From NCBI GenBank assembly GCA_002784465.1, contig PFLE01000008.1, positions 1-63,705 of the forward strand: a DNA stretch of 63,705 nt, written 5' to 3'. Both the position numbers and the translations under genes were made by a program. A model generated the notes under the pieces. It saw only the letters and a list, made by a program, of their open reading frames with translations, did no database searches and had not been told where the DNA came from. Positions 26,529 through 62,170 of the stretch are shown one piece after another. Positions within the stretch are counted from its first letter, which is position 1. Each line of letters begins with the position of its first letter. The DNA comes from Candidatus Shapirobacteria bacterium CG_4_10_14_0_8_um_filter_39_15. GTDB lineage: Bacteria > Patescibacteriota > Microgenomatia > UM-FILTER-39-15.

Positions 26529-26547
26529 CTTCTCGATAAACCAACCC

Positions 26548-26577: not shown

Positions 26578-26743
26578 GCGGTTCACTGGGGAGCCAGAAA
26601 TTAGTAATGAAAATTCTTAAACAAATAATCCAAAACCTTAGGCGATTTTTGCGTGCGTAAATAGGAATTTTCAGTATCTTTTGAAGCTCCATTGGGAGCT
26701 CTATTTGTTTTTGCACATTATTTAATGGAACTCAAGGACAGAC

Positions 26744-26955: not shown

Positions 26956-26964
26956 CTGGGGCTA

Positions 26965-27067
26965 GTCATTCTGAACGAAGTGAAGAATCTAGCGGGATGT
27001 ACCAGACGGTACGTCCCGAAGCGAATTGCGCTGCGGCTAGATCCTTCGGCCGATGCCTCAGGATGAC
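26965..27067. repeat. GTCATTC...GAATGAC composite palindromic element (family P3)
   Basis: GTCATTCTGAACGAAGTGAAGAATCTAGC ... GGGATGTACCAGACGGTACGTCCC ... GCTAGATCCTTCGGCCGATGCCTCAGGATGAC. Confidence 0.75.
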
Positions 27068-27684
27068 GATTAATTTTTGCGGTTGACGATTATTTTTTAA
27101 AATAGAAATTAATCGTCAGCTGAAAAAAGCTGGATGGTACCTTAAAAAGTGAAGAGAAAATATATAAGTAGGCCCTCCGATGCAAATCGGAGGAAAAGGT
27201 CTTAAACAGCTTAGTTTTTATTAAAGCAAGTGGTGGATGCCTTGGTAACAAGAGCCGAAGAAGGACGCAGTCGGCAGCGATATTCGTCGGGGAGGAGTCT
27301 AACATCCTTTGATCCGGCGGTTTCCGAATAGAGTAATCTCCTCGTAAGAGGGACTTGCACCATACGGTGCGAGTAGGGAACTGGGCGAACCGAAACATCC
27401 AAGTAGCCCAAGGAAAAGAAAATAATAATGATTCCGTCAGTAGCGGAGAGCGAAAGCGGAACAGCCTAAACCCGAACAAATCTCGCAAGAGATTTGCGCG
27501 GGTGTTGTAGGGTCTCATTATGGGAGTATTAAGAATAGTCAAACGGTGTGGAATTGCCGACCATAGAGAGTGAAAGTCTCGTAGACGAAATTCAAGATAC
27601 CTCTAGAGATACCTAAGTAACTCGAAGCACATACTTTGAGCGAATCTGGGGCAACCATGCTCCAAGGCTAAATACTCTTGTTGT

Positions 27685-27726
<42 letters not shown>

Positions 27727-27785
27727 CCGGTGAGGGGAGTGAAATAGAACCTGAAACCATTTGCTAACAAACAGTAAGAGCATCT

Positions 27786-27918
27786 CGTTTCCACTCGATG
27801 CTTAAGTCAAAAGTAAAAAGTTAAAAATCAAAAGTACAAGTAAAAATTAAAAATATACAATTGAAATTTTGACTTTTGCATTTTGAATTTTGCATTTGAA
27901 CACCGAGTGGAGGCGAGG
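27786..27918 (+). other. IVS/expansion at the helix-25 site of the 23S
   Basis: An AT-rich palindrome made of AAAAGTCAAAAG words replaces the short helix between AGTAAGAGC and GTGATTACGTGCC. Confidence 0.65.
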
Positions 27919-28486
27919 TGTGATTACGTGCCTATTGAAGAATGAACCGGCGAGTTCTCAATTACTGCATTAGTTTAAGCCGCTAATTACGGCTCAAGCG
28001 TAGCGAAAGCAAGTCTGAATAGGGCGTAATAAGCAGTTGTTGGGAGACCCGAAACCTGGCGAGCTAACCATGAACAGGGTGAGCCCCGATGAAAGTCGGG
28101 GGGAAGCCCGAACTCGTTGTCGTTGCAATGACATGAGATGATTTGCGGTTAGGGGTAATATGCCTAACGAGCCAGGAGATAGCTGGTTCTCCCCGAAATA
28201 TATATAGGTATAGCGTCCGTTAAACTTTTCCGGAGGTAGAGCACTGAATGGGTGTGGTAACGCAAGTTATTATACTCAATCAAACTCCGAATGCCGGAAA
28301 AAGATTTACGGGCAGTCAGAACGGTGGGTCTAAGCTCATCGCTCTAAAGGGAAACAACCCAGATTTCCATCTAAGGTCTCTAAATTTCTGTTAAGTGTTA
28401 AAGGAAGTGTTTTTCCTCAGACACCCAGGAGGTTGGCTCAGAAGCAGCCATCCTTGAAAGAAAGCGTAACAGCTCACTGGACGACA

Positions 28487-28605
28487 GCTCTCCTTCGCTT
28501 TTTGCTCCGAAAAAGCTACGGGACGAGCACCCTCTCTAATTAACAAAGGAGAGCGAGTGCCCTTCCGAAGCTTCGAACGAAGTAAGAAGCGGAGGAGGGT
28601 GGAGA
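28487..28605 (+). other. IVS/expansion at the helix-45 site of the 23S
   Basis: An extra segment of about 120 nt after AGCTCACTGGACGA and before TGCGCCTAAAACG. Confidence 0.6.
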
Positions 28606-29487
28606 AATGCGCCTAAAACGTATCGAGGCTAAAACAGAATACCGAAGATGAAGAACTTGTGTAAAGCACAAGGAATTCAAAAGTCAAAAGTTTTATTCTG
28701 AAGGTTTATTAATTTTGAATTTCTCATGCTTTGCATGAGTTGGTAGGGGAGCGTTGATACTGCAGTGAAGCCGAGCTGTAAGGCAAGGTGGAGCGGTATC
28801 AAGTGAGTATGCCGGTATAAGTAGCGAGATCCCGGTGAGAAACCGGGACGCCGAATACCCGAGGTTTCTCCGACAATGCTAATCAGTCGGAGGTTAGTCG
28901 ACCCTTAGGTGAGTCCGAGCTTAGCTCGGAGTAGCCGATGGATAAACTGTTAATATTCAGTTACAGAGAGTGAATCGTTACCAACTGGGGATTGACAGGG
29001 ATGGATAGCCAAACCCGCCGCAAGGCGAGCTTAAATCACAAGGCAGTTTTTGTAGGAAAACCCGCAAAAACGTTTACACTGCAAAGTGTCTAACCGAATG
29101 ATGAATAAGAGTCTAAGCCGCAAGGCAAGGACAATTTGGTAATTTCAACCCTCAAGAAAAGATTCGCAGTGAGATTCATTTTTTATCGTACCGAAAACCG
29201 ACACAGGTGGGTTGGTAGAGTATACCAAGGCGGACGAGAGAAGGAAGTTCAAGGAACTCGGCAAAAAAGCTGGGCGTAAGTTATGCAAGATGCCCTACTC
29301 CGATTTATCGGAGTTCAACAAAAGATTTTCAAGCGACTGTTTAACTAAAACACAGGTCTCTGCAAACCCGCAAGGGTAAGTATAGGGGCTGAAGCCTGCC
29401 CAGTGCCGGAAGGTTATGGGGAGGAGTGAGTCGCCGTAAGGCGACAGGCTCTGAACTTAAGCCCCGGTGAACGGCAGCAGTAACTAT

Positions 29488-29968
29488 GAATCGAAAGGTG
29501 TTGTAGTTGTTAAACTTAGCTATATGCTGGAATAACTCGTGTATCCGACAGTACCCCGTTACCATACGGTACAGGGTGACAATCTGTTCGGTGGAGTCAA
29601 TCAGCAGGAAAGGCTTTGGTAAATTAAAATCAATGTCATTCCCACGTTTACCCTGTAAGGGAAAGTGGGAATCTATATCAAAAAAGGAGTAAAACAGTAA
29701 ATCAGATAATCAGGTTAAGTAAATCTGAGAACAGAATATCAGTAGTAAAAACTGATCCCTGTTTTCTAATCTCTTTTCCCGATACTCTGATCAACTGATA
29801 ATCTTAATTGTGTTATATAGATTCCGGCTCGTAGGCCGGAATGACAAAATAAAAATTATCAAAGAATCCTCAGAGACTATACGCTGAGACCGAGCTTAGC
29901 TCGGGATGATATAGTCCGACCTTCAGTGCGAACTGAAGAACCGTAAAATCGGTCTAGTAACAAAGGTG
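29488..29968 (+). mobile_element. 23S intron 1, ORF-less group I, at AACTAT|AAC in helix 69 (about E. coli 1917)
   Basis: The 5' exon ends in U and the intron ends in G. Core TCAGAGACTATACG ... GATATAGTCC. It carries a P1 and a P3 repeat internally. Confidence 0.8.
29689..29806. repeat. family P1 palindrome nested inside 23S intron 1
   Basis: AAAACAGTAAATCAGATAATCAGGTTAAGTAAATCTGAGAACAGAATATCAG ... CTGATCCCTGTTTTCTAATCTCTTTTCCCGATACTCTGATCAACTGAT. Confidence 0.7.
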
Positions 29969-30488
29969 AACTGTTCGATGGTAGCGAAGTCCCTCGCCAG
30001 GTAAGTTCTGGCCCGCATGAAAGGCTTCACGACTTGAAAACTGTCTCGAACTTCCACTCGGCGAAATTGAAATGGCTGTGAAGATGCGGCCTACGCATTC
30101 TTGGACAAAAAGACCCCGTGGAGCTTTACTATAGCTTGGTGTTGGAATGATGTTTGAAATTGTGCAGTGCAGGAGGGAGTCTCGACGCAAGTCGGACGCC
30201 AATGTAACACCTCTCTTTTTAAACCTCAAACCTTACCTGTGAGTTCTGGAAACGAACTCGGGGAACGCGCCAGGTGGGTAGTTTGACTGGGGCAGTCGCT
30301 TGCTAAAGAGTAACGCGAGTGCACAAAGGTTGGCTAGTCTCGAACGGAAATCGAGATGATAGTGTAAAGGCAAAAGCCAGCTTGACTGTGAGGCCGACGG
30401 GCCAAGCAGAGTCGAAAGACGGTCTTAGTGATCCTCCAACTCGTCGTGGGACGGTTGGGGCTTAACGGATAAAAGCTACCCCGGGGAT

Positions 30489-30782
30489 ACAACTGTGTCC
30501 CGTCTTGGTGAATATAAAAATACCAGGACTTGTATGCAACTAATAACGGTGGAACCCGCAACTGGAGAGTTTTAAGTAAAAGTCTTCTCTCGCGAGGCAG
30601 CCAAGGGTAATACCGTGGGAAGTCCGGCTTTGCCGGACCCCGTAACGACTGATTCCGAAAGGATGAGATATAAATTACTTCCCAAAAGGGAAAATCTACA
30701 ATTTATATCATACGTTGCCTCCCATAAAATTTTATATGGGATGAAGATATAGTCTGCGCTTACAGAAATGTAGGATTTTGTG
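30489..30782 (+). mobile_element. 23S intron 2, ORF-less group I, at GGGGAT|AACAGG (about E. coli 2449, peptidyl-transferase ring)
   Basis: The 5' exon ends in U and the intron ends in G. Elements ATAACGGTGGA, AATACCGTGGGAAGTC, CCCGTAACGACTG, GAAGATATAGTCT. Confidence 0.8.
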
Positions 30783-30844
30783 AACAGGCTGATCTGATCC
30801 GAAAGTCCATATTGACGATCAGGTTTGGCACCTCGATGTCGGCT

Positions 30845-31650
30845 CAATTTTAGGGTCGCTACCCGAGTAATCGAGTAGATTAATACGAGCTCATAACGGT
30901 GGACTCCAATTGCGATATAATTATCGTAAATGGACAATACCGTGGGAAGTCGACAAAGAGATATTATTTTTGGAATGCTATTAGGTGACGGATTTTTAGA
31001 ACGCAATGGAAAATATGTCAGATTGGTAACTGACCATAGCGGAAAACAAGAAACTTATGTTAATTGGTTAGCAAGCCAATTAACTAACTTAAATCCGAAA
31101 TTAGTTTTTAAGAAAAGAATTGATCGAAGAAACCTGAAAGTTTACGATCATTGTATTTTAAGAACCAACACTTCATCTAAGTTGGAAAAATTCTTTTCCT
31201 TATTTTATGAAGGTAAAAGAAAAAGAATTCCACCTTGTTTAAGTAAAATAATATCTCCAATGGTGTTAGCGGTTTGGATAATGGATGATGGATACAAAAG
31301 AAATGATTGTCGGGCAATGAGAATAAATACCCAAAGTTATACCTTGGAAGAACAGAAAATTATCAGACAATCGTTTCTTCGTATCGGTATCAAAGTTAAT
31401 ATCCATAAACAAAAACAGCACTATTTGGTTTATATTCCATCTTCTTATATGAAGAAATTTATAGGAATGATTAAACCCTATATTATTCCTTCTATGGAAT
31501 ATAAAATTTGTTTGACCCCGTAACGACTGATTCCGAAAGGATGAGATATGAGATTTATCTTGTATCACACGCTCGTCCCCGCGCAAATTTCTGAAGAAAT
31601 TTGTTCGGGTGAAGGTATAGTCTGCACCATTAGTAATAATGGATTATGTG
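30845..31650 (+). mobile_element. 23S intron 3, group I with a LAGLIDADG ORF, at GTCGGCT|CATC (about E. coli 2511)
   Basis: The 5' exon ends in U and the intron ends in G. It has the same core word set as introns 2 and 4. Confidence 0.8.
30930..31523 (+). CDS. LAGLIDADG homing endonuclease (double motif)
   Basis: MLLGDGFLE and WIMDDGYK motifs. Confidence 0.85.
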   Translation: MDNTVGSRQRDIIFGMLLGDGFLERNGKYVRLVTDHSGKQETYVNWLASQLTNLNPKLVFKKRIDRRNLKVYDHCILRTNTSSKLEKFFSLFYEGKRKRIPPCLSKIISPMVLAVWIMDDGYKRNDCRAMRINTQSYTLEEQKIIRQSFLRIGIKVNIHKQKQHYLVYIPSSYMKKFIGMIKPYIIPSMEYKICLTP

Positions 31651-31795
31651 CATCGCATCCTGGGGGGGTAGCCCCTCCCAAGGGTTGGACTGTTCGCCCA
31701 TTAAAGCGGTACGTGAGCTGGGTTCAGAACGATGTAAATCAGTTCGGACTCTATCCAGAATGTGCGTTGGATTCTTGAGGGAAGTTCTCCTCAGT

Positions 31796-32278
31796 AAACC
31801 CATATTAGGGTTTTGCTGCTTCCGAAGCAATTCGGAATGAAAATTCGGCTTATAACGGTGGAGTCTTAATAACGAAGATAATACCGTGGGAAGTCGGTTT
31901 GGAGGACGGATGACAGAATACGGAAGACGGATAAGCAAAGCTTGATGCTTCGCAATAGCAGATAGAACAGATTTGACAGATTATTCCCTGTCATTCTGAA
32001 CTTGATTCAGAATCTATATAAATTATTGTATAGATTCCTGGTCAAGCCAGGAATGACATAGTAATTTTCTGTTTTTCTGTCTTTCTGCAATCTGTTTTCT
32101 GTTATCTGTCATCTGGCTTCTAGACTTGACCCCGTAACGACTGTATCCTTGTACTATTTAGTACAGGATCGACTTAAATCTACTTGATTTAGGTAACACG
32201 CCGACCCCGTTTAAATTTCAAAAGAAATTTGTTCGGGTGAAGATATAGTCTACACTTCTAGTGATAGAAGATAATGTG
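31796..32278 (+). mobile_element. 23S intron 4, ORF-less group I, at CTCAGT|ACGAGAGGACC (sarcin-ricin loop, about E. coli 2656)
   Basis: The 5' exon ends in U and the intron ends in G. Same core words as introns 2 and 3. It contains nested word palindromes and a P3 element at 31985-32060. Confidence 0.8.
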
Positions 32279-32725
32279 ACGAGAGGACCAGGAGAAGGGG
32301 ATCCCTGGTGTGCCAGTTGTCCGAGCTTAGCTCGGGCATCGCTGGGTAGCTACATCCTCTGGGGATAACTGCTGAAAGCATCTAAGCAGGAAGCTCCGCC
32401 CAAGATTAGGAATCCTTCCGAGCTTAGCTCGGTGAAGACCCCAGGTAGACTACCTGGTTGATTACGCCGCAAGGCGTAGTCGTTCGCGCGCAAGCGCGAA
32501 GATAGGCTGGGAGTGTATGCTTACCAGTACTAATTGGTCAAAAAGAATTAAGCTGTTTGAGATGAACCTGCGCGCGGAGCGCGTAATTTCTCTTCACTTT
32601 TCAAGGTGTCATCAGACACCGCAGACCCGCCAGAAATCGCTCTTCAAGTCGTGTTCGAATAGAACTGAAAAGACTTGAAGTAAGATTCGGCGGGTAAATA
32701 CTTTAACATTTTTGCCTTAAAGCCT

Positions 32726-32797
32726 TTCGGTCTTTGGAGCGGAGCGGAACTACTCTTTTCCCGTCTCGACTCGGTCGAGCCGAGGCGGGCCATTCCG
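32726..32797 (+). pseudogene. 5' fragment of a second, disrupted 5S-like copy
   Basis: A 46-nt stretch ACTCTTTTCCCGTCTCGACTCGGTCGAGCCGAGGCGGGCCATTCCG is identical to the intact 5S. The matching 3' piece CCGAACAAGATAGTAAAAC lies at 33060-33078. Confidence 0.55.
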
Positions 32798-32864
32798 TCG
32801 CGTAAAATCGCTGAAGCGATTAACGCGACTGGCACGTTGATTTGAGAACTCGTAAAATCTAGAA

Positions 32865-33017
32865 GTGTCTCGGTGACTAGAGCGGACTGGTACCACTCTT
32901 TTCCCGTCTCGACTCGGTCGAGCCGAGGCGGGCCATTCCGAACAAGATAGTTAAACGGTCTAGCGTCGACGATAGTAGAGCCTTGTGTTCTGCGAAAATA
33001 GATCGTTGCCGAGACAC
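32865..33017 (+). rRNA. 5S rRNA with a 30-nt hairpin inserted in loop C
   Basis: Helix I GTCTCGG / CCGAGAC, then CCATTCCGAACAAGATAGTTAAAC, GCGTCGACGATAGTAG and TGCGAAAATAGA. The extra hairpin lies at 32903-32932. Confidence 0.8.
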
Positions 33018-37299: not shown

Positions 37300-37345
37300 T
37301 TTCTTCTGTCATTCCCGCATAAGCGGGAATCTATATAAATAAGGT

Positions 37346-37464
37346 AAAGAATATCAGTTGATCAGATCATCAGGGTAAGAAATCAGAGATCAGAAACCAG
37401 TAATATTTACTGATATACCGGTCTCTATTCTCTTAACCCGATCAGCTGATCTACTGATTTACTT
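37346..37464. repeat. family P1 palindrome
   Basis: ATATCAGTTGATCAGATCATCAGGGTAAGAAATCAGAGATCAG ... CTGATATACCGGTCTCTATTCTCTTAACCCGATCAGCTGATCTACTGAT. Confidence 0.7.
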
Positions 37465-37917
37465 TTCCCCGAGTTATCAACAATTCCCCAAACGAGTTAA
37501 TTTTAATCGGAATTGGCTTCATTTACCTGGAGTATCTAATTATAAGATATAGGTTTTTTTCAGTGACTTTTATTATAGGTTTGACATACTTGACAGGTTG
37601 TGGTATATTGGAAACATCAATGAGTAAGCGTTTTTTATCCAACTTTTTCAAACGAAGATTAAGCCTTAAGGTTTCCGGAACTAGGGCCAGTTCAGCGTGG
37701 GGGAAAGAACAAATAAAGAAAATTGGAAGTTTAGGTCAATCGCTCATTGTCATGCAGGTTGGTTGAAGAATTACAAAAGAGCATCGCTAGCGCTACTCTC
37801 TTTTAGATCAGGGTACGCATAGTAATGCTCTTTAAACGGTTCCGTTTGGACAGAGAACTAGAACCATTTTGACATTAACATTAAAAAAAATAGTTGTCAA
37901 GACCCGTTGATAATAAT

Positions 37918-38036
37918 AAGAATATCAGTAAATCAGAATAACTGGGTAAGAGATCCGAGAACAGAAATCAGTTAATATTACCGAGATTCCGTTCTCTGTT
38001 TTACTTAACCTGATTTTCTGATCTACAGATTTACTA
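37918..38036. repeat. family P1 palindrome
   Basis: AATATCAGTAAATCAGAATAACTGGGTAAGAGATCCGAGAACAG ... CGTTCTCTGTTTTACTTAACCTGATTTTCTGATCTACAGATTTACT. Confidence 0.7.
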
Positions 38037-38420
38037 TTGTGTTTCTCTTTAAGTGAGGAGTGGTATGCTCGCACTAAAAAATCGTCGACACGATTTTTCA
38101 GTGTAAAGGCAGGTTTAGCCCGTAAATCGCGAATTATAACTTCGGCTTTAACGGGGAGGGTGGTGTGTAGGGCAGGCGCACTACCTTCCACATTGAAGCA
38201 GAGTGCGATTTTACGGGCCGTGTTGCCTCTCACCTAGAGACAAACAAAGTCAGGGCTTGACCCCAGTAGAACACTTACTTGCTCCCAAATACTACGTGTT
38301 TGCGTCGCAAGAGCGTGTCTACGGGGCTGCGCAAAGAAGTCGGGACTTGACAACATAGGTTAACTCTTGTTAAATAAGGTTAGTTAGTTTTCCTTCGTTT
38401 CCATGATTCTTAATTTTCCT
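38037..38420 (+). ncRNA. ORF-free structured region upstream of rho (leader or unidentified ncRNA)
   Basis: It contains the same hairpin-TAAA module and the TTTAGCCCGTAA...TTACGGGCC clamp found in the tRNA-Ala nest. I found no RNase P or tmRNA signature motifs. Confidence 0.35.
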
Positions 38421-39681: not shown

Positions 39682-40362
39682 CTAATGTCCCTTAAACTTA
39701 TCGGCAATTCTGGCTTGTTCCACTTGGTAATACTTTTGGTCCTCCGCCAACTTTTTCTCCAAAGATTGGACCAAAACTCTTAAGAGATAGTCTGTTTTAT
39801 TAATAAGTTCTATAAAAATCTCGTAAGTTAGGTTTTCTGCCTTAATCTGAGTTAGAGGAGGGTAGAGGATGGTTAAAGGACGATAGAGGAATTTACCATT
39901 CTCTAAATTTCCTTTAACCTCCTTTAAGGCCGTGTTTAGATCTTTTAGATTGATCCCAATTCCTGCTAAACTTGATTCTGGCTTACTTGGTAAAAATCCA
40001 TCCTCCGCCAGTTCTCGAACGTCTCCTTTGATTTCTTCCAGGCTTCCCGGAGAAAATCCTACAAACTCGATGTATTCCGAGGTGGTGCTTCTCTTGAAAC
40101 CTTCTTCTTGATTTCTGACATTAGATCTACCGGCATCATCTAATTGCGCTTTTCTTCGATACTCTGATTTTGGTAACGAGATCGTATAAAGCCTTATAAA
40201 ATGTCTTAGTAAGACAGAGTTTGACCAGGAAGTTAGATATCTATATCCTTCCGGATCTTTCCAAACTCTTGAACTTTGAACCGGTTTTTTAGGAGTATTT
40301 AGTTCTCTCATCGTTTTTTCCACTAGTTCCTGAATTATTTCCTGTTGAGTTTTGTCTGGCAT
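39682..40362 (-). CDS. four-helix-bundle family protein with an N-terminal extension
   Basis: QLDDAGRSNVRNQEEGFKRSTTSEYIEFVGFSPGSLEEI fits the Q..A.RS...NI.EG..R ... GS..E pattern. Flanked by CCTCTAA-word repeats. Confidence 0.6.
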   Translation of the reverse strand: MPDKTQQEIIQELVEKTMRELNTPKKPVQSSRVWKDPEGYRYLTSWSNSVLLRHFIRLYTISLPKSEYRRKAQLDDAGRSNVRNQEEGFKRSTTSEYIEFVGFSPGSLEEIKGDVRELAEDGFLPSKPESSLAGIGINLKDLNTALKEVKGNLENGKFLYRPLTILYPPLTQIKAENLTYEIFIELINKTDYLLRVLVQSLEKKLAEDQKYYQVEQARIADKFKGH

Positions 40363-41162
40363 ATTTCTATATTATCATTTTTTCCTTTACGATCCTCTAT
40401 CGTCCTTTAGCGTCCCCTATCTCTCTTGGTCTTGCTATCCCATAATATGTGTTATAATTCCTCCAGTTTGGGAGCAATCCCAACTGGCAGTCTTAACATG
40501 TCGGGTTCTACTATCCAAAACGGGCCAAAAGTCAAAAAGTGAAATGTAAATCTCGAAAACGGACTGCGGCCAAAAAGTTCGACGCCTAAGGAGGGCGAAG
40601 ATGGATAAGAAAGTAGAGAAAGGTGTCCCTGGGTGGATGATGGTGGTGGTGCTTGCGGCACTGGCTCTTTGGGCAGCAACGTTGATAGTCTTGGTGCCTG
40701 ATGAACTACGCGCAACCGTGTTCAATGCCTGGATGACCGTTACTATATGGTCATCATCGGCGGGGCAACATGCTTTGCCCTCGTGGTTGCCGCGATGGAC
40801 AATCTCCGGTCATGAATGCGATTCAGGATTCAAAGAGACTGAACGAAGCGCTTTAAAACGCGTTTTTCATTCTTCGTTTTGTGGATCCTGCGGGAGTAGC
40901 CGAGTTAGTTAAAAATACCCGGTATAACTTCCGTAACGCTGCGATAGGGGCAGGTTCGAAGCGAACCTTGCTCAAAGGGGCTGAGAATCTTCCCCCGGAA
41001 ATCCTTTTGCAGAAGATTGAGCTAGGTTGGTTGTACCTACCTGATCAGAAGTAGTAACAAGCCTGATTAAAGACTGCCAACTGGCGGAGGAGTGTCAACT
41101 CATGTAACAATGTTTATGAGAAGATGCCCTCCGCCTTTTTGGTGGAAAAAAATACATCATTA

Positions 41163-41290
41163 ACAGTAAATCAGTAAAAATCAGAAAATCAGGTTAAGAT
41201 AATCAGAGAACAGAATATCTGTAACAAAATTACTGATTTTACTGATCTCTGTTTTCTTTTCCCGATATAACCGATATTCTGATTTACTTC
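41163..41290. repeat. family P1 palindrome
   Basis: ACAGTAAATCAGTAAAAATCAGAAAATCAGGTTAAGATAATCAGAGAACAG ... CTGATCTCTGTTTTCTTTTCCCGATATAACCGATATTCTGATTTAC. Confidence 0.7.
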
Positions 41291-41364
41291 TTTTGTGATC
41301 TCTTTTGATATATTTCGATTTGTTTACATTTATGACTAATTCTGATACTGTTTAACAATCTAAA

Positions 41365-44563: not shown

Positions 44564-44574
44564 GTGGGATAACT

Positions 44575-44695
44575 AGTAGAATATCAGTTGATCAGTAAAT
44601 CGGGGAAAGATGACTTGAGAACAGAATATCTGTAAGAGGGACTGATTTCGGATCCCTGTTTTACTTTACCCGATATTCTGATTTACTGATTTACT
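44575..44695. repeat. family P1 palindrome
   Basis: AGAATATCAGTTGATCAGTAAATCGGGGAAAGATGACTTGAGAACAG ... CCCTGTTTTACTTTACCCGATATTCTGATTTACTGATTTAC. Confidence 0.7.
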
Positions 44696-44742
44696 TGTTT
44701 CAAATTGATTTCAAATTTAAAATTGTAAATTAAAAAATTATC

Positions 44743-47956: not shown

Positions 47957-50542
47957 ATGGAAAAATATAATCCTTCAGAATTTGAATCCAAATGGGTTAA
48001 GGTCTGGGACGAGGCCGGAATTTACAAGGCAAAAGATTTTGATTCCAAGCCCAAGAAATACATTTTATTTGAGTTTCCATATCCTTCTGGAGAGCGTCTT
48101 CATGTTGGTCACGGCCGGAGTTATACCGCTTTGGACGCCATGGCCAGAAAATACCGGATGCAGGGATATAATGTTTTGCTGCCGATTGGTTGGGATGCTT
48201 TCGGTTTGCCGGCGGAAAATTACGCGATCAAAATGGGCGTCAATCCGGCAGTGACAACTAAGGAAAACGTTGCCAATGCCAAAGCCCAGGTAAAAAGTTG
48301 GGGAGTCTCAATCGATTGGGACAGAGAAATCAATACGACTGATCCAAAGTATTATAAATGGACTCAATGGATCTTTTTAAAGCTTCTGGAAAAAGGATTG
48401 GCATATCAATCCGAAGTCGCGGTCAACTGGTGTCCGTTTTGCAAGACAAACCTGGCTGATGAAGAGGTTTTAGCCGACGGAACTCACGAGCGCTGTAGTA
48501 ATCAAACCGAGCGGCGGATGCAAAAACAATGGGTTTTAAAAATTACTGCGTATGCCGAACGTTTGCTTGAGGACTTAAAAACAGTTAATTACTTGCCCAA
48601 AATCCGGATTCAGCAGGAGAACTGGATTGGAAAAAGTGAAGGAGTTCACCTAAAATTCGAATTAAAGGGTCATCCTGAACGCAGTGAAGGATCTTCTCTT
48701 ACTGTTTTTACCACAGCCATAGATACCGTTTTTGGCGCAACCTTTATGGTAATTGCGCCGGAATATGCCCAAAATTTGCATGAATTAATTCCCGCAAATT
48801 CCCAAAAAACCGTAACAGAATATATCAAAAATGCTCTTAAGAAATCAGAATTAGAAAGACAAACGCAAGATAAAACAAAGACAGGAGTTGATACCGGAAT
48901 AAAAGTTATCAATCCATTGAGTGGTAAAGAGATACCTGTTTTTGTCGCGGATTATGTTTTAAGCAATTATGGAACCGGGGCGGTGATGGGAGTACCGGGA
49001 CACGATACCCGGGATTTTGAATTTGCCCAAAAATACAGCTTGCCCGTAATTATAGTGATCAAGCCGGAAGAAAACGAAGTAATAGACTTTTGGGATTATA
49101 ATAAAATCAAGGAATATCGCGGCAAATCAATCTTAATAAATTCTGGCAAATATGATGGGATGACTGCTAAAGAGGCAAAAGAAAAGCTGGTTAATGAACT
49201 TGTGGAAAAAGGAATTGGCGAAAAAACCGTTAATTTCCATTTGCGTGATTGGGTTTTTTCCCGCCAGCATTACTGGGGCGAACCAATACCGGTTCTTCAT
49301 TGTCCGAAATGCGGTATTGTCCCGATTCCTGAAGATCAGTTGCCGGTTAAATTACCTTACGTTGAAAAATATCAGCCAACCGGAACCGGAGAATCGCCAT
49401 TGGCCCAAATGACGGACTGGGTAAATACGACCTGCCCGAAATGCGGTGGTCCTGCCAAGAGAGAAACCGACACGATGCCAAACTGGGCCGGATCCAATTG
49501 GTACTTTCTCGGTTATTTAATTACGGGTCATCCTGAACGGAGTGAAGGATCTAGCAGCGGCGTTTCGGGACGTACCGTCTGGTACATCCCATCGCTAGAT
49601 TCTTCGGTTTCGCCTCAGAATGACATCTTTAGTGAAAATAAAGACATATTTGAATACTGGATGCCGGTGGATTTGTATAACGGGGGAATGGAACACACCA
49701 CTTTGCATTTATTGTATTCCAGATTTATTTATAAATTCTTATATGATATTGGTGTGGTTCCGACTTCCGAACCTTATGCCCGCCGGACATCTCACGGAAT
49801 GGTTTTAGGGCCGAATGGCGAAAAGATGAGCAAGTCGCGGGGGAATGTGATTAATCCTGATGAAACAATTAAAGCTTATGGTTCCGATACCTTCAGGTTA
49901 TACGAGTCTTTTATGGGGCCTTTTGATCAAACTATTGCCTGGAGTGAGGAAGGGGTTGAGGGTTGCTACCGGTTTTTGAGGCGAGTATGGGTATTAGCTT
50001 CGCAAGGGGACGCCTTGCGAAATCAAACCTCTCAATCTTTAAAAAGAGCTTTGGCGAAGACAATTAAAAAAGTGGGGGAGGATATAGATAAGATGAAGTT
50101 TAATACGGCCGTGGCCGCCATGATGGAGTTGGTGAATGCTTGGACTGCTGACAAAAACGGTTTGAGTAATGAGGATTTGAAAAAGTTTTTACTGATTTTA
50201 GCGCCATTTGCCCCGTTTATAACAGAGGAGCTCTGGCAGCGAGATGTTGAATCTTTGAATTCTGGAAATCTTGATGTCAAAAATTCCAACAGATGGTCTA
50301 TCCATCAGCAGTCTTGGCCGAAGTTTGATCCGAAATTAATCGAGGATGAGGAAACGATAATCGTGATTCAGGTGAATGGAAAAGTGAGAAGCCAGATTCG
50401 AGCGGGAAGCAAGATGCGGGAGGCGAGAAGCGAGATAGAAGCGTTGGCAAAGTCTAATGACAGAGTGTTAAAATACCTTGAGGGAAAAGAAATTAAAAAA
50501 GTGATTTTTGTGCCTGGAAAACTGATAAACTTCGTGATCTAA
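47957..50542 (+). CDS. leuS: leucine--tRNA ligase
   Basis: HVGH and KMSKS motifs, 861 aa. In-frame P3 repeat insertions at 48668-48697 and 49527-49624. Confidence 0.95.
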   Translation: MEKYNPSEFESKWVKVWDEAGIYKAKDFDSKPKKYILFEFPYPSGERLHVGHGRSYTALDAMARKYRMQGYNVLLPIGWDAFGLPAENYAIKMGVNPAVTTKENVANAKAQVKSWGVSIDWDREINTTDPKYYKWTQWIFLKLLEKGLAYQSEVAVNWCPFCKTNLADEEVLADGTHERCSNQTERRMQKQWVLKITAYAERLLEDLKTVNYLPKIRIQQENWIGKSEGVHLKFELKGHPERSEGSSLTVFTTAIDTVFGATFMVIAPEYAQNLHELIPANSQKTVTEYIKNALKKSELERQTQDKTKTGVDTGIKVINPLSGKEIPVFVADYVLSNYGTGAVMGVPGHDTRDFEFAQKYSLPVIIVIKPEENEVIDFWDYNKIKEYRGKSILINSGKYDGMTAKEAKEKLVNELVEKGIGEKTVNFHLRDWVFSRQHYWGEPIPVLHCPKCGIVPIPEDQLPVKLPYVEKYQPTGTGESPLAQMTDWVNTTCPKCGGPAKRETDTMPNWAGSNWYFLGYLITGHPERSEGSSSGVSGRTVWYIPSLDSSVSPQNDIFSENKDIFEYWMPVDLYNGGMEHTTLHLLYSRFIYKFLYDIGVVPTSEPYARRTSHGMVLGPNGEKMSKSRGNVINPDETIKAYGSDTFRLYESFMGPFDQTIAWSEEGVEGCYRFLRRVWVLASQGDALRNQTSQSLKRALAKTIKKVGEDIDKMKFNTAVAAMMELVNAWTADKNGLSNEDLKKFLLILAPFAPFITEELWQRDVESLNSGNLDVKNSNRWSIHQQSWPKFDPKLIEDEETIIVIQVNGKVRSQIRAGSKMREARSEIEALAKSNDRVLKYLEGKEIKKVIFVPGKLINFVI

Positions 50543-50630
50543 CGCGTCATTCTGAACGGAGTGAAGGATCTTCTTTAACAATTTAATTTTCAGCCCATCT
50601 TTATTCCGCCAAATTCTATTATTTACGTTT

Positions 50631-51932: not shown

Positions 51933-51994
51933 AACTAAAGTCATTCGGAGGCGTAGCCGAAGAATCTAGTGAAAGATCCTTCGTTTCACTCAGG

Positions 51995-53131
51995 ATGACA
52001 CCCCAAAGAATGAGACACTTTGTCATCTTATTACTCCTATTGATATTGTTTTTCTGGCGGTTTTCAACGATTAAAACTCCAAATTACTCTAACGGAACAC
52101 AAATAAGAATTACTGCCACTTTGAAAACAGCACCTCAAGTTTCCGGAGGGACCCAAAAATTTTCTCTGTCTGGCATCAAAATCACTACCTGGAAATATCC
52201 GGAATATCAATATGGAGACCGGTTGATTGTTTCAGGAGTTGTGAAGAATAATAGTTTAGAGATGCCTGGAATAGAGAAGCGGGAGGCGGGAAGCCCTTAC
52301 AGGGTAAACGAGATGCGAGATGCGGGAAACGGGATATCAGATATTGGATATTTGATATTCGAGTTAAGAAATCAGATAGATAAAAAATTTCGGAAAAATT
52401 TACCGGAACCGGAGGCTAGTTTATTGTCCGGAATTACTCTGGGATTAAAATCAAATCTGCCAAAAGATTTTTATTACAACCTGCAAAAAACCGGAACCAT
52501 GCATATTATCGTTGCCTCGGGGATGAATGTGGCGTTGGTTTCCGGAACAATCACGACTTTTTTATTGTGGTTTTTTTCCAGGAAAAAAGCGGTAATACTT
52601 TCAATTATTTTGATCTGGTTTTATGTAGAGTTAGCGGGTGGCGATGTTCCCGTGGTTCGGGCGGGGATAATGGGGTCGGTTGTCCTTCTGGCCCAATTTT
52701 TCGGCCGGGAACCGGATGTTCTTAATGCCCTGGGGGTTGCTGTGGCGATAATTGTTTTTATCAACCCTGCCAGCTTAAATGATATAGGCTTTCAATTGTC
52801 GTTTGCTGCGACCTTAGGTATCGTAATGCTTTCAAAAAAGTTGAGCAGTTTGCTCTCAAGACTGCCAGAAAGAGTTAGAAACGATCTTGGACAAACTTTA
52901 TCAGCCCAACTTTTTACTTTACCGATCATGCTTTTAAACTTTGGTTATTATTCCTGGATTTCCGTTCCGGTTAATTTGCTGGTTGCCTGGCCATTGGTTT
53001 GGATATTAAGATTGGGATTAGTAGCGGGATTTGTCGGAATATTGTTTGCGCCCTTGGGTTATCTGATTTGCCTTTTTATATTGCCGTTGTTAAGCTATTT
53101 TGTTAGAGTGGTGGAGTTATTTGGAAAATAA
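51995..53131 (+). CDS. comEC: ComEC/Rec2 membrane channel part (DUF4131 plus Competence domain)
   Basis: Typical ComEC TM core. The start codon lies inside a P3 repeat (CAGGATGAC). In-frame word insertion at 52274-52334. Confidence 0.8.
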   Translation: MTPQRMRHFVILLLLLILFFWRFSTIKTPNYSNGTQIRITATLKTAPQVSGGTQKFSLSGIKITTWKYPEYQYGDRLIVSGVVKNNSLEMPGIEKREAGSPYRVNEMRDAGNGISDIGYLIFELRNQIDKKFRKNLPEPEASLLSGITLGLKSNLPKDFYYNLQKTGTMHIIVASGMNVALVSGTITTFLLWFFSRKKAVILSIILIWFYVELAGGDVPVVRAGIMGSVVLLAQFFGREPDVLNALGVAVAIIVFINPASLNDIGFQLSFAATLGIVMLSKKLSSLLSRLPERVRNDLGQTLSAQLFTLPIMLLNFGYYSWISVPVNLLVAWPLVWILRLGLVAGFVGILFAPLGYLICLFILPLLSYFVRVVELFGK

Positions 53132-53136
53132 AAAAC

Positions 53137-53251
53137 TAGTAAACCAGAAAATCAGAAGATCGGGTTAAGTAAATCTGAGAGCAGAATATCAGCCGCTACT
53201 GATTCCCGCTCTCTGTTCTCTTGCTCTGATATACTGATTAACTGATAATCT
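53137..53251. repeat. family P1 palindrome separating the two comEC parts
   Basis: AGTAAACCAGAAAATCAGAAGATCGGGTTAAGTAAATCTGAGAGCAG ... CGCTCTCTGTTCTCTTGCTCTGATATACTGATTAACTGAT. Confidence 0.7.
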
Positions 53252-53257
53252 TATATT

Positions 53258-54187
53258 ATGGATTTTAAACTAAAATATTTCATTTCCAGCCTGACTTTAC
53301 TATTGGTGCTTCTGGTTTGGGGGATTATTTCCTTTCCTGACCAAAAGCTTCATCTTATTTTTTGTGATGTGGGCCAAGGAGACGCGATTTTGGCGATAAA
53401 AGGGGACACGCAGATTCTAATTGATGGCGGTCCGAATGATAAAGTGCTGGGATGTTTATCTAAACATATACCCTTTTGGGACAGAACAATTGAAATGATA
53501 ATTTCGACTCACCCGGACAGCGACCATCTGTCGGGACTGGTTTCTGTTATACAAAGATACAATGTGAGCCAGATATTGGCTAATTCATTGGTGACCAATA
53601 CCGGGGTCTTTGGCAAATTCCGGTCCGAAGTGATAGCGAAAAAAATTCCGGTTTTCAGCCCGAAATCTGGGGATGAAATTAAGATTTCGAACCTGGATTT
53701 TAAAATTTTATTTCCGGAAGAAAAATTAGGGAACGAAACATTGTGGCACACTTCGGCTTCGCTCAGTGCAAGTGATTTGAAGGTATTGGGAATTTCCGCT
53801 TATACCGGGGAAATTAACGCCACCATGATCGTTTCCGAGCTGGAATACGGGAATTTTAAAGCTCTACTGACGGGAGATATTGGGGTTGACCAGGAAACCC
53901 TCCTTCGCTCCTCGGTTGACCTCGGAGCTACGGAAGGGCAAGGAGGCATTGATATTCTAAAAGTAGCGCATCACGGAAGTAAATATTCCAGTTCTCAAGA
54001 ATTTCTGGACCTGATTCGGCCCAAACTGGCAATAATCTCCGTTGGTGCCAATAACAACTATGGTCATCCTACAAGCGAAGTGCTTGATCGTCTAAAAACC
54101 ATCGGCGCCAAGATTTTGAGGACGGATATCAATGGAGAGATTGAAGTAATGACCAATGGTGTAGGATGGAAAGTAAAAAATAATTGA
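53258..54187 (+). CDS. comEC: ComEC C-terminal metallo-beta-lactamase-fold domain as a separate ORF
   Basis: VGQGDA ... THPDSDHLSG ... VAHHGS motifs. Confidence 0.8.
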   Translation: MDFKLKYFISSLTLLLVLLVWGIISFPDQKLHLIFCDVGQGDAILAIKGDTQILIDGGPNDKVLGCLSKHIPFWDRTIEMIISTHPDSDHLSGLVSVIQRYNVSQILANSLVTNTGVFGKFRSEVIAKKIPVFSPKSGDEIKISNLDFKILFPEEKLGNETLWHTSASLSASDLKVLGISAYTGEINATMIVSELEYGNFKALLTGDIGVDQETLLRSSVDLGATEGQGGIDILKVAHHGSKYSSSQEFLDLIRPKLAIISVGANNNYGHPTSEVLDRLKTIGAKILRTDINGEIEVMTNGVGWKVKNN

Positions 54188-60128: not shown

Positions 60129-60142
60129 TAAATTCGAAAATA

Positions 60143-60261
60143 ATAGTAAATCAGTTAATCAGATTATCTGGAAAAGTAAAACAGAGATCGGTATATCGGT
60201 AAAATAACTGATTTCTGCTCTCTGATCTCTTTCCCTGGTATTCTGATTTACTGATATTCTA
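60143..60261. repeat. family P1 palindrome
   Basis: ATAGTAAATCAGTTAATCAGATTATCTGGAAAAGTAAAACAGAGATCGG ... CTGATTTCTGCTCTCTGATCTCTTTCCCTGGTATTCTGATTTACTGAT. Confidence 0.7.
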
Positions 60262-60266
60262 TCTTT

Positions 60267-62024
60267 ATGAAATCCGAATTACAAAAACTAATTTATAAAA
60301 ACACAGGAAAAAAAGCAATTATTGAGCATCCAGTGGATATGGAACATGGTGATTATTCAACCAATGTAGCGTTGAAAACAAGAAGCGAGAAGTCCTTCGA
60401 CTCTGCTCAAGGTAAACAAGAAGCGAGAAGCGGGAATCCAATGGAACTGGCGAATGAGATTGTCAACAAGATTCGATCTGCCGGAATGCCGGAATATATT
60501 TCTAAAATTGAAGTTGTTCAGCCCGGATTTATTAATTTTTGGTTGAGTCAGGAATATTTAGCAAACCAATTAGAAGGAGTGCTAAAGGATAAAGATGGAT
60601 TCGGTAAGCTCACGATTGGTAAAGGGAAAACGGTGGTGATTGATTATTCTTCGCCCAACATCGCCAAGCCCTTTGGTATTGGCCATCTTCGGTCAACCGT
60701 GATTGGTCAGGCAATTTATAATCTGTATAATTTCTGCGGCTGGAAAACAATTGGGGATAATCATTTGGGCGATTGGGGGACGCAGTTTGGTAAATTAATT
60801 TACCAAATTCAAAATTCAAAAGTCAAAATTCCCTTACAGGGTAAACAAAATTTGACGATAGAAAAACTGGAAAAGCTTTATGTTGATTTCCATAAAAAGG
60901 TAGAAAAACATCCGGAAATCGAGGACGAAGCGAGAAAATATTTCCAGATGCTGGAAGCGGGAGATAAGGAAGTAAGACGGATATGGCAAGCCTGTGTTGA
61001 TTTGTCTTTGAAGGAATTTAACCGGATATACGATTTGCTTGGAATAAAAATCGATTACGCTTTTGGCGAGAGTTTTTATGAAGATAAGATGGCCGAAGTA
61101 ATTGTGGATGCCAAGCGGAAAAAGTTAGCAGTCGAGAGTCAAGGAGCGCTGATTATATCCTTTGATGAATTAAATATCCCGCCGGGAATTCTTTTAAAAA
61201 GTGACGGGGCAACGATGTATTTTACCCGCGATTTAGCCTGCGTTCTATACCGCCAGCGCAGATGGAATCCGGATTTATATATTTACGAAGTAGGTTCAGA
61301 CCAGAAACTCCATTTTCAGCAGGTTTTTGCCGGTGCGGTAAAACTTCATTATGGAAAAATGAATCAGTTCGTTCATGTGGCGCATGGTCTGATACGGTTT
61401 CCGGAGGGAAAAATGAGTACCCGGGCGGGTAAGACCGTTCACCTTGATACGGTTTTGGATGAGGCGATTAAGCGGGCAACAAAGATTATTAAGAAATCTT
61501 CGACCGGCCGGGGAATGACGGTAAAACAACAGGAACAGATAGCCAAGGCAGTAGGAATCGGGGCAGTAAAGTATTTTGATTTAAAGCATCAGCCGGAAAC
61601 CGATATTATTTATGATTGGGAAAAGATGTTCCAGCTGGAAGGGGATTCGGGACCTTATTTGCAGTATACCTTCGCTCGGACACGAAGTGTTCTTAATAAA
61701 ATAAAAAATAAAATATTAAATATAAAAAATACAGATCAAATATTAAAAATAAAAAACACTCTCAATTCTGAAGAACTTGGATTATTACGAACGATTTACA
61801 GATTTCCTGAAGTTATTGAGTTAGCTGCCGAAAATTATTCTCCTAATCTTATCTGTAATTTCCTATTCGATCTGGCCCAAAAATATAATAATTTCTACAA
61901 TATCCATCGGATACTTGGGGGCGGCGATTCGGAAGAATTCAGACTGGCCTTAACCGCAGCGACCGGGCAGGTTCTTAAAAACGGATTGAGTTTGCTGGGG
62001 ATTGATACACCCGAACGAATGTGA
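60267..62024 (+). CDS. argS: arginine--tRNA ligase
   Basis: SSPNIAKPFGIGHLRS class I motif and a DALR-type C-terminus. In-frame word insertions at 60379-60436 and about 61690-61760. Confidence 0.92.
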   Translation: MKSELQKLIYKNTGKKAIIEHPVDMEHGDYSTNVALKTRSEKSFDSAQGKQEARSGNPMELANEIVNKIRSAGMPEYISKIEVVQPGFINFWLSQEYLANQLEGVLKDKDGFGKLTIGKGKTVVIDYSSPNIAKPFGIGHLRSTVIGQAIYNLYNFCGWKTIGDNHLGDWGTQFGKLIYQIQNSKVKIPLQGKQNLTIEKLEKLYVDFHKKVEKHPEIEDEARKYFQMLEAGDKEVRRIWQACVDLSLKEFNRIYDLLGIKIDYAFGESFYEDKMAEVIVDAKRKKLAVESQGALIISFDELNIPPGILLKSDGATMYFTRDLACVLYRQRRWNPDLYIYEVGSDQKLHFQQVFAGAVKLHYGKMNQFVHVAHGLIRFPEGKMSTRAGKTVHLDTVLDEAIKRATKIIKKSSTGRGMTVKQQEQIAKAVGIGAVKYFDLKHQPETDIIYDWEKMFQLEGDSGPYLQYTFARTRSVLNKIKNKILNIKNTDQILKIKNTLNSEELGLLRTIYRFPEVIELAAENYSPNLICNFLFDLAQKYNNFYNIHRILGGGDSEEFRLALTAATGQVLKNGLSLLGIDTPERM

Positions 62025-62048
62025 CTCTAAGTGTTATCTTGAAGAGAG

Positions 62049-62158
62049 TATTAGTTGATCAGAATATCAGGATAAGAAATCAGAGAGCAGGAAACAGTTA
62101 TTACTGATATTCTGTTCTCAGATTTGCTTGACCCGATAATCTGATTTACCGATTTACT
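62049..62158. repeat. family P1 palindrome
   Basis: TATTAGTTGATCAGAATATCAGGATAAGAAATCAGAGAGCAGG ... CTGATATTCTGTTCTCAGATTTGCTTGACCCGATAATCTGATTTACCGAT. Confidence 0.7.
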
Positions 62159-62170
62159 ATTATATTTACA

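Follow-up and report, generated by a model that had tools for sequence, protein, structure and literature searches.

How does a near-palindromic DNA element come to lie inside the gene of an aminoacyl-tRNA synthetase without breaking its reading frame? The question is raised by contig PFLE01000008.1 (assembly GCA_002784465.1) of Candidatus Shapirobacteria bacterium CG_4_10_14_0_8_um_filter_39_15, a Microgenomatia member of the candidate phyla radiation (CPR), of which positions 1 to 63,705 were analysed and are referred to here as the window. The gene is leuS (47957-50542, + strand), an intact open reading frame (ORF) for a leucyl-tRNA synthetase (LeuRS) of 861 aa with HVGH and KMSKS motifs. 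Its product can be aligned over the full length with T. thermophilus LeuRS 1H3N (E 1e-211), has its best matches among CPR/Microgenomates LeuRS (closest 66% identity), and is encoded in identical form on 11 contigs. Positions 49527-49624 translate as GHPERSEGSSSGVSGRTVWYIPSLDSSVSPQND in the frame of this ORF, whose 861 codons are unbroken; the sequence is as quoted in the original prediction, which was made from the DNA letters alone. We consider it probable that the element is a non-autonomous miniature belonging with the repeats described as SRM and as CGTC-tagged repetitive extragenic palindromes (REPs), kept in leuS because it leaves the frame open and lies in a tolerant loop.

The leuS composite, as we will call it, consists of two inverted units with their tags outward around a nested 24-nt hairpin. 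The left unit, designated A-type (GTC-ATCCT-GA-ACGGAGT-GA-AGGAT-C; 49527-49551, + strand), encodes (G)HPERSEGS and contains a 7-nt mini-hairpin, ACGGAGT. It is followed on the + strand by a TAGC tail and an 11-nt linker, AGCGGCGTTTC (together 49552-49566), then by the inner hairpin GGGACGTACC-GTCT-GGTACATCCC (49567-49590), and then by ATC and GCTA. The right unit, inverted and designated B-type (49598-49624, - strand), carries a 9-nt mini-hairpin, GGCGAAACC, and encodes DSSVSPQND on the + strand. The stem of the left unit is ATCCT/AGGAT and that of the right unit ATTCT/AGAAT, each being Watson-Crick inside and unlike the other. Because left and right units pair internally yet differ from one another, the conserved functional module is the unit hairpin and not the long outer palindrome; the palindromic family proposed at the outset, nested hairpin included, is thus present, with a smaller building block than was assumed. 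This block is a hairpin of 25-28 nt composed of a GTC tag, ATYCY, GA, a mini-hairpin with a GNA loop, GA, RGRAT and C, often followed by TAG(C). Units of the leuS type pair over 5 bp and, beyond a GA/GA step, over another 2-3 bp closed by a loop of 3 nt, and the stem starts with AT in every unit. DNA hairpins gain stability from GNA triloops and from tandem sheared G.A pairs, and the GA/GA step is probably such a pair of sheared G.A.

Are the copies in genes insertions? Opposite 1H3N, residues 522-552 of the window LeuRS (site 2, the leuS composite) face one residue. The segment is missing in 29 orthologues, and the terminal CCTCAGAATGAC of the element (PQND) aligns where orthologues read DPxND. 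Further in-frame copies had been predicted in leuS, a trmH-like gene, a nuclease gene and copA, and all four are present, with corrected coordinates. At LeuRS site 1, where the Pfam match to the LeuRS editing domain begins, a single intact unit (48669-48693, + strand) encodes HPERSEGS; it adds a net five residues relative to orthologues, in a loop between two predicted strands. The same site holds decayed units in the same frame in orthologues P0007, P0013 and P0014, the decayed peptides of the nearer relatives of the window LeuRS being GPERSRRNSS, RPERSRTSSG and GRVERSGTS. The SpoU/TrmH methyltransferase gene (13275-13874) contains an in-frame doublet (13567-13643; units 13567-13591, +, and 13611-13643, -) that encodes CHSERSEES...DPSLPTADQDD; residues 97-124 stand against three in PDB 7edc, and Pfam matches the domain in two pieces. 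The ATP-cone/Mrr-type nuclease gene (6167-7024) specifies a real and widespread CPR protein. Here a unit at 6551-6583 and a partial unit at 6584-6603 (both - strand, in frame) coincide with an insert of 18 residues that separates the D strand from the ExK strand and is missing in 10 of 11 orthologues; P0122 has another insert, of 13 residues, at this position. The single B-type unit in copA lies at 4362-4388 (- strand), not at 4375-4392, in frame within the C-terminal ORF 4272-5375. It encodes DSSPSAQND in the loop after DKTGTLT, with a net gain of four residues relative to A. fulgidus CopA 7r0g, one distant solved structure that is the sole evidence for this copy being an insert.

An AlphaFold2 model of LeuRS built on a 30-sequence alignment (mean pLDDT 82.8) falls below 50 only at residues 525-555 and 767-771, and residues 525-555 have no secondary structure, which suggests that the large insert is an unstructured excursion. 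The orthologue and structure checks proposed with the original prediction therefore came out in its favour: by these alignments, the segments at both LeuRS sites, in SpoU/TrmH and in the nuclease are lineage-specific inserts and not ancestral sequence. The contrary view, according to which the protein sequence here is ancestral or convergent, or else an artefact of assembly, has the open reading frame in its favour and nothing else. As ancestral sequence it is refuted by the orthologue alignments, the site 2 segment being missing in the 29 orthologues and in the solved structures; the same DNA also occurs in non-coding places, 11 contigs carry the identical LeuRS, and independent assemblies show the neighbouring genes again. 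Its probability is practically nil.

An in-frame element could also be an intervening sequence that is removed by RNA excision or protein splicing and is absent from mature LeuRS. The leuS segment is a strong hairpin, and insertions within the rRNA genes of CPR bacteria are believed to be cut out of the mature rRNA. Removal is nevertheless very improbable, since the frame is open in all four host genes, features of inteins or introns are lacking, as is a match in Rfam, and decayed in-frame copies persist in orthologues, which fits translation. If the insert is translated, as we suppose, its predicted tryptic peptides would be SEGSSSGVSGR and TVWYIPSLDSSVSPQNDIFSENK. That the inserts have lengths divisible by three in intact genes is a trivial survivor effect and proves nothing alone. 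In a + oriented unit, the frame G|TCA|TCC|TGA has a stop and the other two are open (two of three per orientation); all three + oriented intragenic units of the window read in the hydrophilic frame H(P/S)ERSE(G/E)S. Site 2 of LeuRS also receives inserts of another kind. In many Microgenomates, octamer-period tandem repeats (AAGATCAA, AAATCCGA and similar) give in-frame inserts there, such as KLGNQKSKIKNQK, LeuRS orthologues with such repeats being L121 3790-6534, L122 227-2875, L123 10001-12730 and L361 10001-12724. The window itself has octamer-period arrays in non-coding DNA, one of them in 23S, at 7939-7984, 8836-8881, 9938-10021, 13159-13204, 17313-17350 and 27804-27887.

The leuS composite has a non-coding counterpart on the + strand in the spacer from tRNA-Ala to 23S (26965-27067; units 26965-26989, +, and 27040-27067, -; inner hairpin 26994-27017), 65 nt past tRNA-Ala (26824-26899) and 143 nt ahead of the 23S rRNA (27210). 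The leuS element had been described as an inverted copy of this one, and it does align better with the reverse complement (77% identity by blastn, E 1e-14; 84% by MAFFT) than on the same strand (67%, E 6e-7). The element is near-palindromic, however, and its orientation is set only by the asymmetric interior, consisting of a linker of 11-18 nt and the 24-nt hairpin GGGACGTACCGTCTGGTACATCCC, which is identical in the two copies (24/24). In the inverted alignment the interior and all four stem halves agree, but the mini-hairpins (ACGGAGT and GGCGAAACC types) are swapped relative to the interior. The orientation is therefore partly ambiguous, and 'inverted copy' is simply the better of two readings. 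The inner hairpin recurs with 23 of 24 positions identical at 18655-18678 and in locus L362 (19023-19046). Beyond the 3' end of the window the whole composite occurs a fourth time, flanked by mreB and a WecG-type (PF03808) glycosyltransferase gene.

Within the window, the 25-nt core allowing up to six mismatches occurs seven times and in none of 20 shuffles. A looser scan for GTCAT followed by a 5-bp Watson-Crick stem finds 30 matches as against 14 +/- 3.8 in shuffles; about 23 of the 30 are family-like as judged by eye, or one unit per 2.8 kb of the 63.7 kb, and six inverted doublets are present. About one third of the units sit in genes or rRNA. Alongside the leuS type there are units with a continuous stem, such as GTCATTCCCGCATAAGCGGGAATC at 37308 and GTCATTCTGAACTTGATTCAGAATC at 31990, and others with a long loop cargo; near-canonical stems of 8-9 bp with loops of 4, 5, 5 and 6 nt occur at 37308, 31990, 32033 and 29820. 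Evidence for the hairpin comes from covariation in 468 units, among the matches listed, whose loci were drawn from collections of genomes, metagenomes and viruses. At the three variable pairs, 99%, 99% and 97% of these units have Watson-Crick bases, where 53%, 67% and 49% would be expected if the positions were independent. The mini-hairpin loop N can be any of the four bases. GTC and the post-stem C are invariant in eight of eight aligned arms (in the 468 outside units both were fixed by the search design). The base before GTC is T in 76% of 149 genome-scan units among the matches listed, and C, T, A or G in the window.

How far does the unit extend beyond this genome? One genome per species was scanned for GTCATYCYGANCGNAGNGARGRATC, and a leuS-specific 29-mer and a general unit pattern were run on metagenome and viral contigs. 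Among the matches listed, carriers of GTCATYCYGANCGNAGNGARGRATC belong to Nitrospirota, Acidobacteriota, Chloroflexota, Bacteroidota, Firmicutes, Proteobacteria, Planctomycetota, Gemmatimonadota and Omnitrophota and, in the CPR, to Saccharibacteria, Gracilibacteria and Uhrbacteria; both other probes match metagenome and viral contigs. The first 120 loci contain at least 40 inverted doublets with spacers of 4-89 nt, often with one arm having a 7-nt mini-hairpin and the other a longer one, as in leuS. Units that lie within a long ORF, with 60 codons or more to either side, account for 22 of 199 genome matches listed, 11 of 236 from metagenomes and 51 of 227 from viral contigs, although many of the high-GC cases may be spurious ORFs. 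Ten unit-bearing ORFs were submitted to Pfam, nine from low- to mid-GC loci and one of GC 0.53. The hosts comprised two LeuRS (L156 and L165), ATP synthase gamma, a PMT_2 glycosyltransferase, PGA_cap, a reverse transcriptase, a dCMP deaminase, a sigma-54 activator and a phage nuclease-domain protein, one ORF being without a Pfam match. To have copies inside genes is a habit of the unit family in general.

The two additional LeuRS genes are unrelated metagenome genes found through the DNA motif only, and both have unit doublets. The L165 LeuRS (6881-9703) is 43% identical to that of the window and has its doublet at the same site 2; L156 (621-3467) and L165 have a third site in common, past the zinc-ribbon cysteines. 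In a crude neighbour-joining LeuRS tree, insert-bearing and insert-free sequences are interleaved, the tree being star-like, such that ancestral and recurrent inserts are not separable. Either these loops are hot spots, or inserts have been gained and lost there repeatedly.

What could mobilise such a unit? In Neisseria, Chenal et al. 2025 (Nat Commun 16:2388, PMC11893778) described a repeat, CGTCATTCCCGCGMAVGCGGGAATCYRG (NTS), which they generalised as SRM, together with SsnA, a 94-aa single-domain GIY-YIG nuclease of the cd10448 type that binds NTS only as single-stranded DNA, not as RNA, and cuts a few nucleotides upstream of it. The nucleotides critical for SsnA are the GTC upstream of the palindrome and the C just after it. 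The ssn genes are usually flanked by SRM, and NTS-ssnA-NTS was hypothesised to resemble an insertion sequence (PMC11893778). A link of the leuS element to these nucleases, which the original prediction missed, emerges from the outside loci. Clustering of ORFs of at least 90 aa from the first 120 loci gave no dominant neighbour and no recurrent transposase-like protein; a three-member cluster proved to be a GIY-YIG gene. A profile built from three small unit-adjoining ORFs was then searched against about 360 fetched loci, among the matches listed, and recovered at least 14 full-length GIY-YIG matches and one weak fragment, in 13 of the loci. Of these 14 ORFs, 13 are 96-146 aa long and one lies within a 427-aa stop-to-stop ORF; 10 come from the 116 loci (808 kb) retrieved by the leuS-specific 29-mer. 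Pfam PF01541 was confirmed, as a single domain, in all eight of the proteins scanned, and NCBIfam gave these Ssn-like proteins no named family.

At least one unit lies within 600 nt of 10 of the 14 GIY-YIG ORFs, on both sides in five cases (L005 of Saccharibacteria, L040 of Gracilibacteria, L019, L225 and L238) and on one side in the other five. L225 reads CGTCATCCTGAACGGAGTGAAGGATCTAGC, then a 102-aa GIY-YIG gene, then GCTAGATCCTTCGACTTTGCCTCAGGATGAC. Its left arm with the TAGC tail is identical to the leuS left arm at 29 of 29 positions, and its right arm is B-type like the leuS right arm. Because L225 has the same two types of arm, the leuS composite looks like a miniature of an L225-type cassette in which the gene would have been replaced by the 24-nt hairpin. 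In the Gracilibacteria locus L040, the Ssn-like ORF (6260-6598) has four units in the same orientation upstream and ends in DSSLRSE, a peptide of the kind given by the repeat family, although no mapped unit matched there.

Hairpin repeats of the REPIN or BIME type are moved by RAYT or by IS200/IS605 Y1 (HUH) transposases, which act on single-stranded hairpins at replication forks, and the general REPIN architecture, with a hairpin and short unpaired tag in dispersed, non-autonomous, inverted doublets, is also that of the leuS family. The tag here is GTC (CGTC or TGTC), however, and not GTAG; no transposase-like neighbour recurred in the first 120 loci, and the profile search of all loci gave the small GIY-YIG gene as a recurrent one; no Y1 transposase was present among the window ORFs scanned; and no RAYT flanked by CGTC units is known from the published survey (PMC3733652). 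We thus regard a transposase of this kind as an improbable driver.

The position of several copies suggests a different role, in which the hairpins are not selfish insertions but were selected in place as RNA signals, be it RNase III stems, terminators, mRNA stabilisers or pause sites. One copy lies in the rRNA spacer, two in the 23S interval and several just 3' of genes, among them a unit 4 nt past the leuS stop codon. Composites also fold better than shuffles (z -2.6 to -4.2), the DNA fold of the spacer composite having z -4.2, and many REPs have been argued to act as RNA (PMC3733652). Yet the units occur in both orientations relative to transcription and also in coding sequence. Non-Watson-Crick pairs are rare in the 468 units (7 G.T-type and 13 A.C-type on the tag strand), without the strand bias that G.U pairing would leave. 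GNA triloops, moreover, mark DNA hairpins rather than RNA ones. SsnA, too, does not bind RNA (PMC11893778). Selection as an RNA signal accordingly seems unlikely to account for the family. A hammerhead-like ribozyme (GUC...CUGA...GAA) was considered and ruled out, the CUGANGA core being missing and the third GAA base variable. A whole-window Rfam scan at gathering thresholds and a permissive scan of 49400-49750 gave chance-level matches only and no family for the element.

We therefore return to the miniature of an SRM- or CGTC-REP-like element as the probable explanation. According to this proposal, two inverted units with tags outward bracket a short cargo, which would be the 24-nt hairpin here and a gene of about 100 aa for a GIY-YIG nuclease elsewhere. 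By analogy with SsnA, the nuclease would bind the single-stranded hairpin only and nick a few nucleotides 5' of the tag. The strand of the leuS-type unit that would be relevant to Ssn action as single-stranded DNA is GTCATCCTGAACGGAGTGAAGGATC, and GTCATYCTGAACGNAGTGAAGRATCTAGC arms would be expected to flank such a nuclease gene in this organism. Outward tags would place nick sites at both outer borders, one per strand, such that the nuclease sets the ends of the element, and copies would spread in trans through some joining step. Copies in genes would last only in tolerant surface loops, where they leave the frame open and alter the net length by a number divisible by three. Their peptides (HPERSEGS..., ...DSSxxPQND) would be translated passengers, not functional domains.

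Several results weigh against this proposal. A GIY-YIG gene was not found in the window, either by regular expression or by Pfam on the main ORFs of at least 100 aa, and the genes called in the 10 kb downstream include no GIY-YIG or ssn gene. GIY-YIG nucleases are not known to join DNA, and nicking alone leaves the copying unexplained. Nearest-neighbour folding of single units is no better than that of shuffles (z about 0 to -0.9); because the energy model gives single units no extra stability, support for the unit hairpin comes from covariation. The leuS-type units match the SRM pattern at its head (GTCAT) and tail (ATCTAG) but fail its inner part, and both + strand units of leuS are preceded by G where the pattern wants any base but G. 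Net gains of five and four residues misfit a clean whole-unit cut-and-paste of units of 25-27 nt. Inspection of the flanks of the composites revealed no target-site duplication, and no empty/filled pair was found.

The empty site 2 of orthologue P0002 reads GATCCGCAAAATGAC, which matches the element end CCTCAGAATGAC at 10 of 12 positions and may be either a hint of target preference or chance. A bolder possibility, which we rate as rather doubtful, is that the SRM-ssn cassette of the GA/GNA type is itself a mobile element, with the GIY-YIG nuclease in place of a transposase, that its miniatures prefer CARAATGAC- or GTCAT-like sites, and that it crosses phyla and is carried by phages. Such a site preference would account for the doublets at the same loop in the unrelated LeuRS of the window and L165, and for the empty site of P0002. 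If the cassette is indeed mobile, the family would be a general, cross-phylum source of protein loop insertions, especially in CPR, and would be phage-borne between hosts.

Non-coding copies were confirmed at all sites where they had been predicted, with the qualification that 29820-29845 is not simply intergenic. With its partner it brackets a palindrome of about 140 nt in an interval that Rfam aligns to 23S rRNA, forming a mosaic (29635-29845) of a unit at 29635-29673 (+), an ATCAG-rich palindrome and the unit at 29820-29845 (-). Between 23S and 5S lies a doublet of fully paired hairpin units (31990-32057; units 31990-32014, +, and 32033-32057, -). The unit past the leuS stop codon occupies 50546-50570 (+). 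A doublet from comEA to comEC (51940-51999; units 51940-51966, +, and 51975-51999, -) reaches the listed comEC start ATG, 51995, which falls in the GGATGAC end of the second unit; the start codon may be supplied or masked by the repeat. A unit at 18646-18688 (-) has the stem ATTGC/GCAAT and, as its loop, the inner hairpin of the leuS composite. Two tandem intergenic units occupy 11845-11882 and 11895-11919 (- strand; 11845-11919 together). Upstream of the copper-operon genes there are, in intergenic DNA, a degenerate unit at 1397-1420 (+) and a unit with long cargo at 1448-1514 (-), and another degenerate intergenic unit lies at 12253-12292. The 10 kb 3' of the window contains further units.

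A second repeat family of the window comprises palindromes rich in ATCAG, about 120-140 nt long and periodic at 8 nt, at 6015-6122, 7018-7150, 12185-12256, 29677-29817, 37347-37476, 37917-38044, 41156-41293, 44567-44704, 53127-53264, 60134-60273 and 62044-62167. Three of them are abutted or bracketed by GTCAT units (29635-29845 in 23S, 12185-12292 and 37308-37476), and these mosaics resemble the NIME mosaics of Neisseria.

Two other loci of the window deserve mention. In copA, a frameshift within seven consecutive G (4254-4260) separates ORFs 2992-4320 and 4272-5375, which lie in different frames and carry, respectively, HMA and E1-E2 ATPase domains (N-terminal half) and a HAD hydrolase domain (C-terminal half). 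The split is also seen in two independent assemblies (Logan SRR6240782 and SRR5435972). Either, then, it is genuine and marks a pseudogene or a site of slippage, or the homopolymer is misread systematically. The rRNA operon (18999-33014) is heavily interrupted. Its 16S gene holds a LAGLIDADG ORF (19736-20353) and a 23S_rRNA_IVP ORF (20833-21195), the 16S-23S spacer is 5 kb long with IVP and NYN ORFs, and the 23S gene exceeds the model by about 395 nt; a further LAGLIDADG ORF follows at 30930-31523. The 5S gene, of 146 nt, is accompanied by a partial duplicate at 32720-32797 (86% identical). Three paralogous 23S_rRNA_IVP (PF05635) ORFs are present, two in the operon (20833-21195 and 23305-23691) and one elsewhere (39682-40362, - strand).

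The phenomenon as such is already known. What is new is the CPR/Microgenomates host, the density of units, about one third of which fall within genes or rRNA, and the repeated use of the same LeuRS loops; also new are the GA/GNA unit variant, missed by the published pattern though it occurs across many phyla and viral contigs, and the pair of cassette and miniature. For annotation, the family offers a source for unexplained loops of 9-33 residues in CPR housekeeping proteins and for split Pfam domains, as in the SpoU methylase, and spurious ORFs of VILSEAKDL or ILRFAQDD peptides derive from the same repeat. Three literatures, on in-frame palindromes of the Rickettsia palindromic element (RPE) type, on CGTC REPs and on Ssn nucleases, are thereby joined and carried to small-genome CPR bacteria. 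The L225 cassette and the leuS miniature give a concrete substrate-enzyme pair for an autonomous/miniature relation that Chenal et al. only hypothesised (PMC11893778), and the spread of the unit variant over phyla and viral contigs may widen the range of Ssn specificities available for single-strand DNA tools.

How, then, does the window compare with the known systems? The likeness to NTS/SRM extends over the head (HGTCAT), the hairpin and the following ATC-YRG, which in window units reads ATCTAG. It includes the inverted motifs that bracket a GIY-YIG gene of about 100 aa in carriers of the leuS-type unit, as well as the high copy number in a probable symbiont, SRM-rich genomes being enriched in symbionts (PMC11893778). 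The published search pattern, HGTCWYN(0-2)YYVSBRHN(0-5)WNVSBRGN(0-2)RNCYNB (PMC11893778), has one exact match in the window, at 37307-37334, with 0.06 expected in shuffles. The differences are that NTS/SRM has a continuous stem of 8-9 bp where leuS-type units have 5 bp, GA/GA and a GNA mini-hairpin, and that 2% of N. meningitidis motifs lie in genes or rRNA as against about one third of window units (PMC11893778). The main text of Chenal et al. does not mention CPR (PMC11893778).

The CGTC REP superfamily of Di Nocera, De Gregorio and Rocco 2013 (BMC Genomics 14:522, PMC3733652) has a CGTC tag, often TGTC, stems of 8-9 bp that nearly always start with AT, and loops of 4-5 nt. Its members are mostly inverted dimers without a dedicated transposase and include Neisseria dRS3 and Rickettsia RPE-4 (CGTC-4) and RPE-6 (CGTC-1) (PMC3733652). 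Window units share the unpaired (C/T)GTC tag, the AT stem start, the inverted dimers and the lack of an adjacent transposase. They share, moreover, the in-frame copies in aminoacyl-tRNA synthetase and housekeeping genes, with peptides in the same frames. Intragenic, in-frame CGTC REPs were catalogued in that work, tRNA synthetase and repair genes included, with peptides such as RHSELVSGS (Sulfurovum), SFLRKQES...LDSRFRGND (R. conorii) and VIPACAGMT (Coxiella) (PMC3733652). Back-translated, these peptides fit GTCATTC...GAATC units, and the leuS reading frame LDS...ND is the one listed for the R. conorii dimers (PMC3733652). Peptides of the GA/GNA variant (HPERSEGS, VILSEAKDL, ILRFAQDD) are not in that list of intragenic REPs (PMC3733652), and a literature search with the peptides (HPERSEGS and others) and with DNA 13-mers returned nothing relevant. 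The range differs as well: five phyla were reported for the superfamily (PMC3733652), and many more, plus CPR and viral contigs, were found here among the matches listed.

With REPIN/RAYT systems the window family has in common the non-autonomous hairpin doublets and the single-copy partner gene flanked by repeats; the tag is GTC instead of GTAG and the partner a GIY-YIG nuclease instead of a Y1 HUH transposase. The + strand unit TGTCATTCCCGCATAAGCGGGAATCTAT (37307-37334), the one that matches the SRM pattern exactly, also matches dRS3 (ATTCCC-N8-GGGAAT), positions 37308-37331 reading ATTCCC GCATAAGC GGGAAT, and the inverted units around repeat cargo at 29635-29845 recall the NIMEs. The cargo here consists of ATCAG-rich palindromes, the units also occur inside coding genes, and neither a filamentous prophage nor a recombinase of the Piv type was seen.

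A behavioural parallel had been drawn by the original prediction with Rickettsia palindromic elements. The parallel holds inasmuch as the members of a dispersed palindromic family lie in frame in essential genes that stay intact, in a probable symbiont with a reduced genome, and are present in RNA genes and non-coding DNA besides; the behaviour is not new, having been catalogued since 2013. RPE-1 is a longer element. Through the published classification of RPE-4 and RPE-6 and through the peptides, rather than through an alignment to Rickettsia DNA, the window units probably resemble RPEs by homology and not by analogy.

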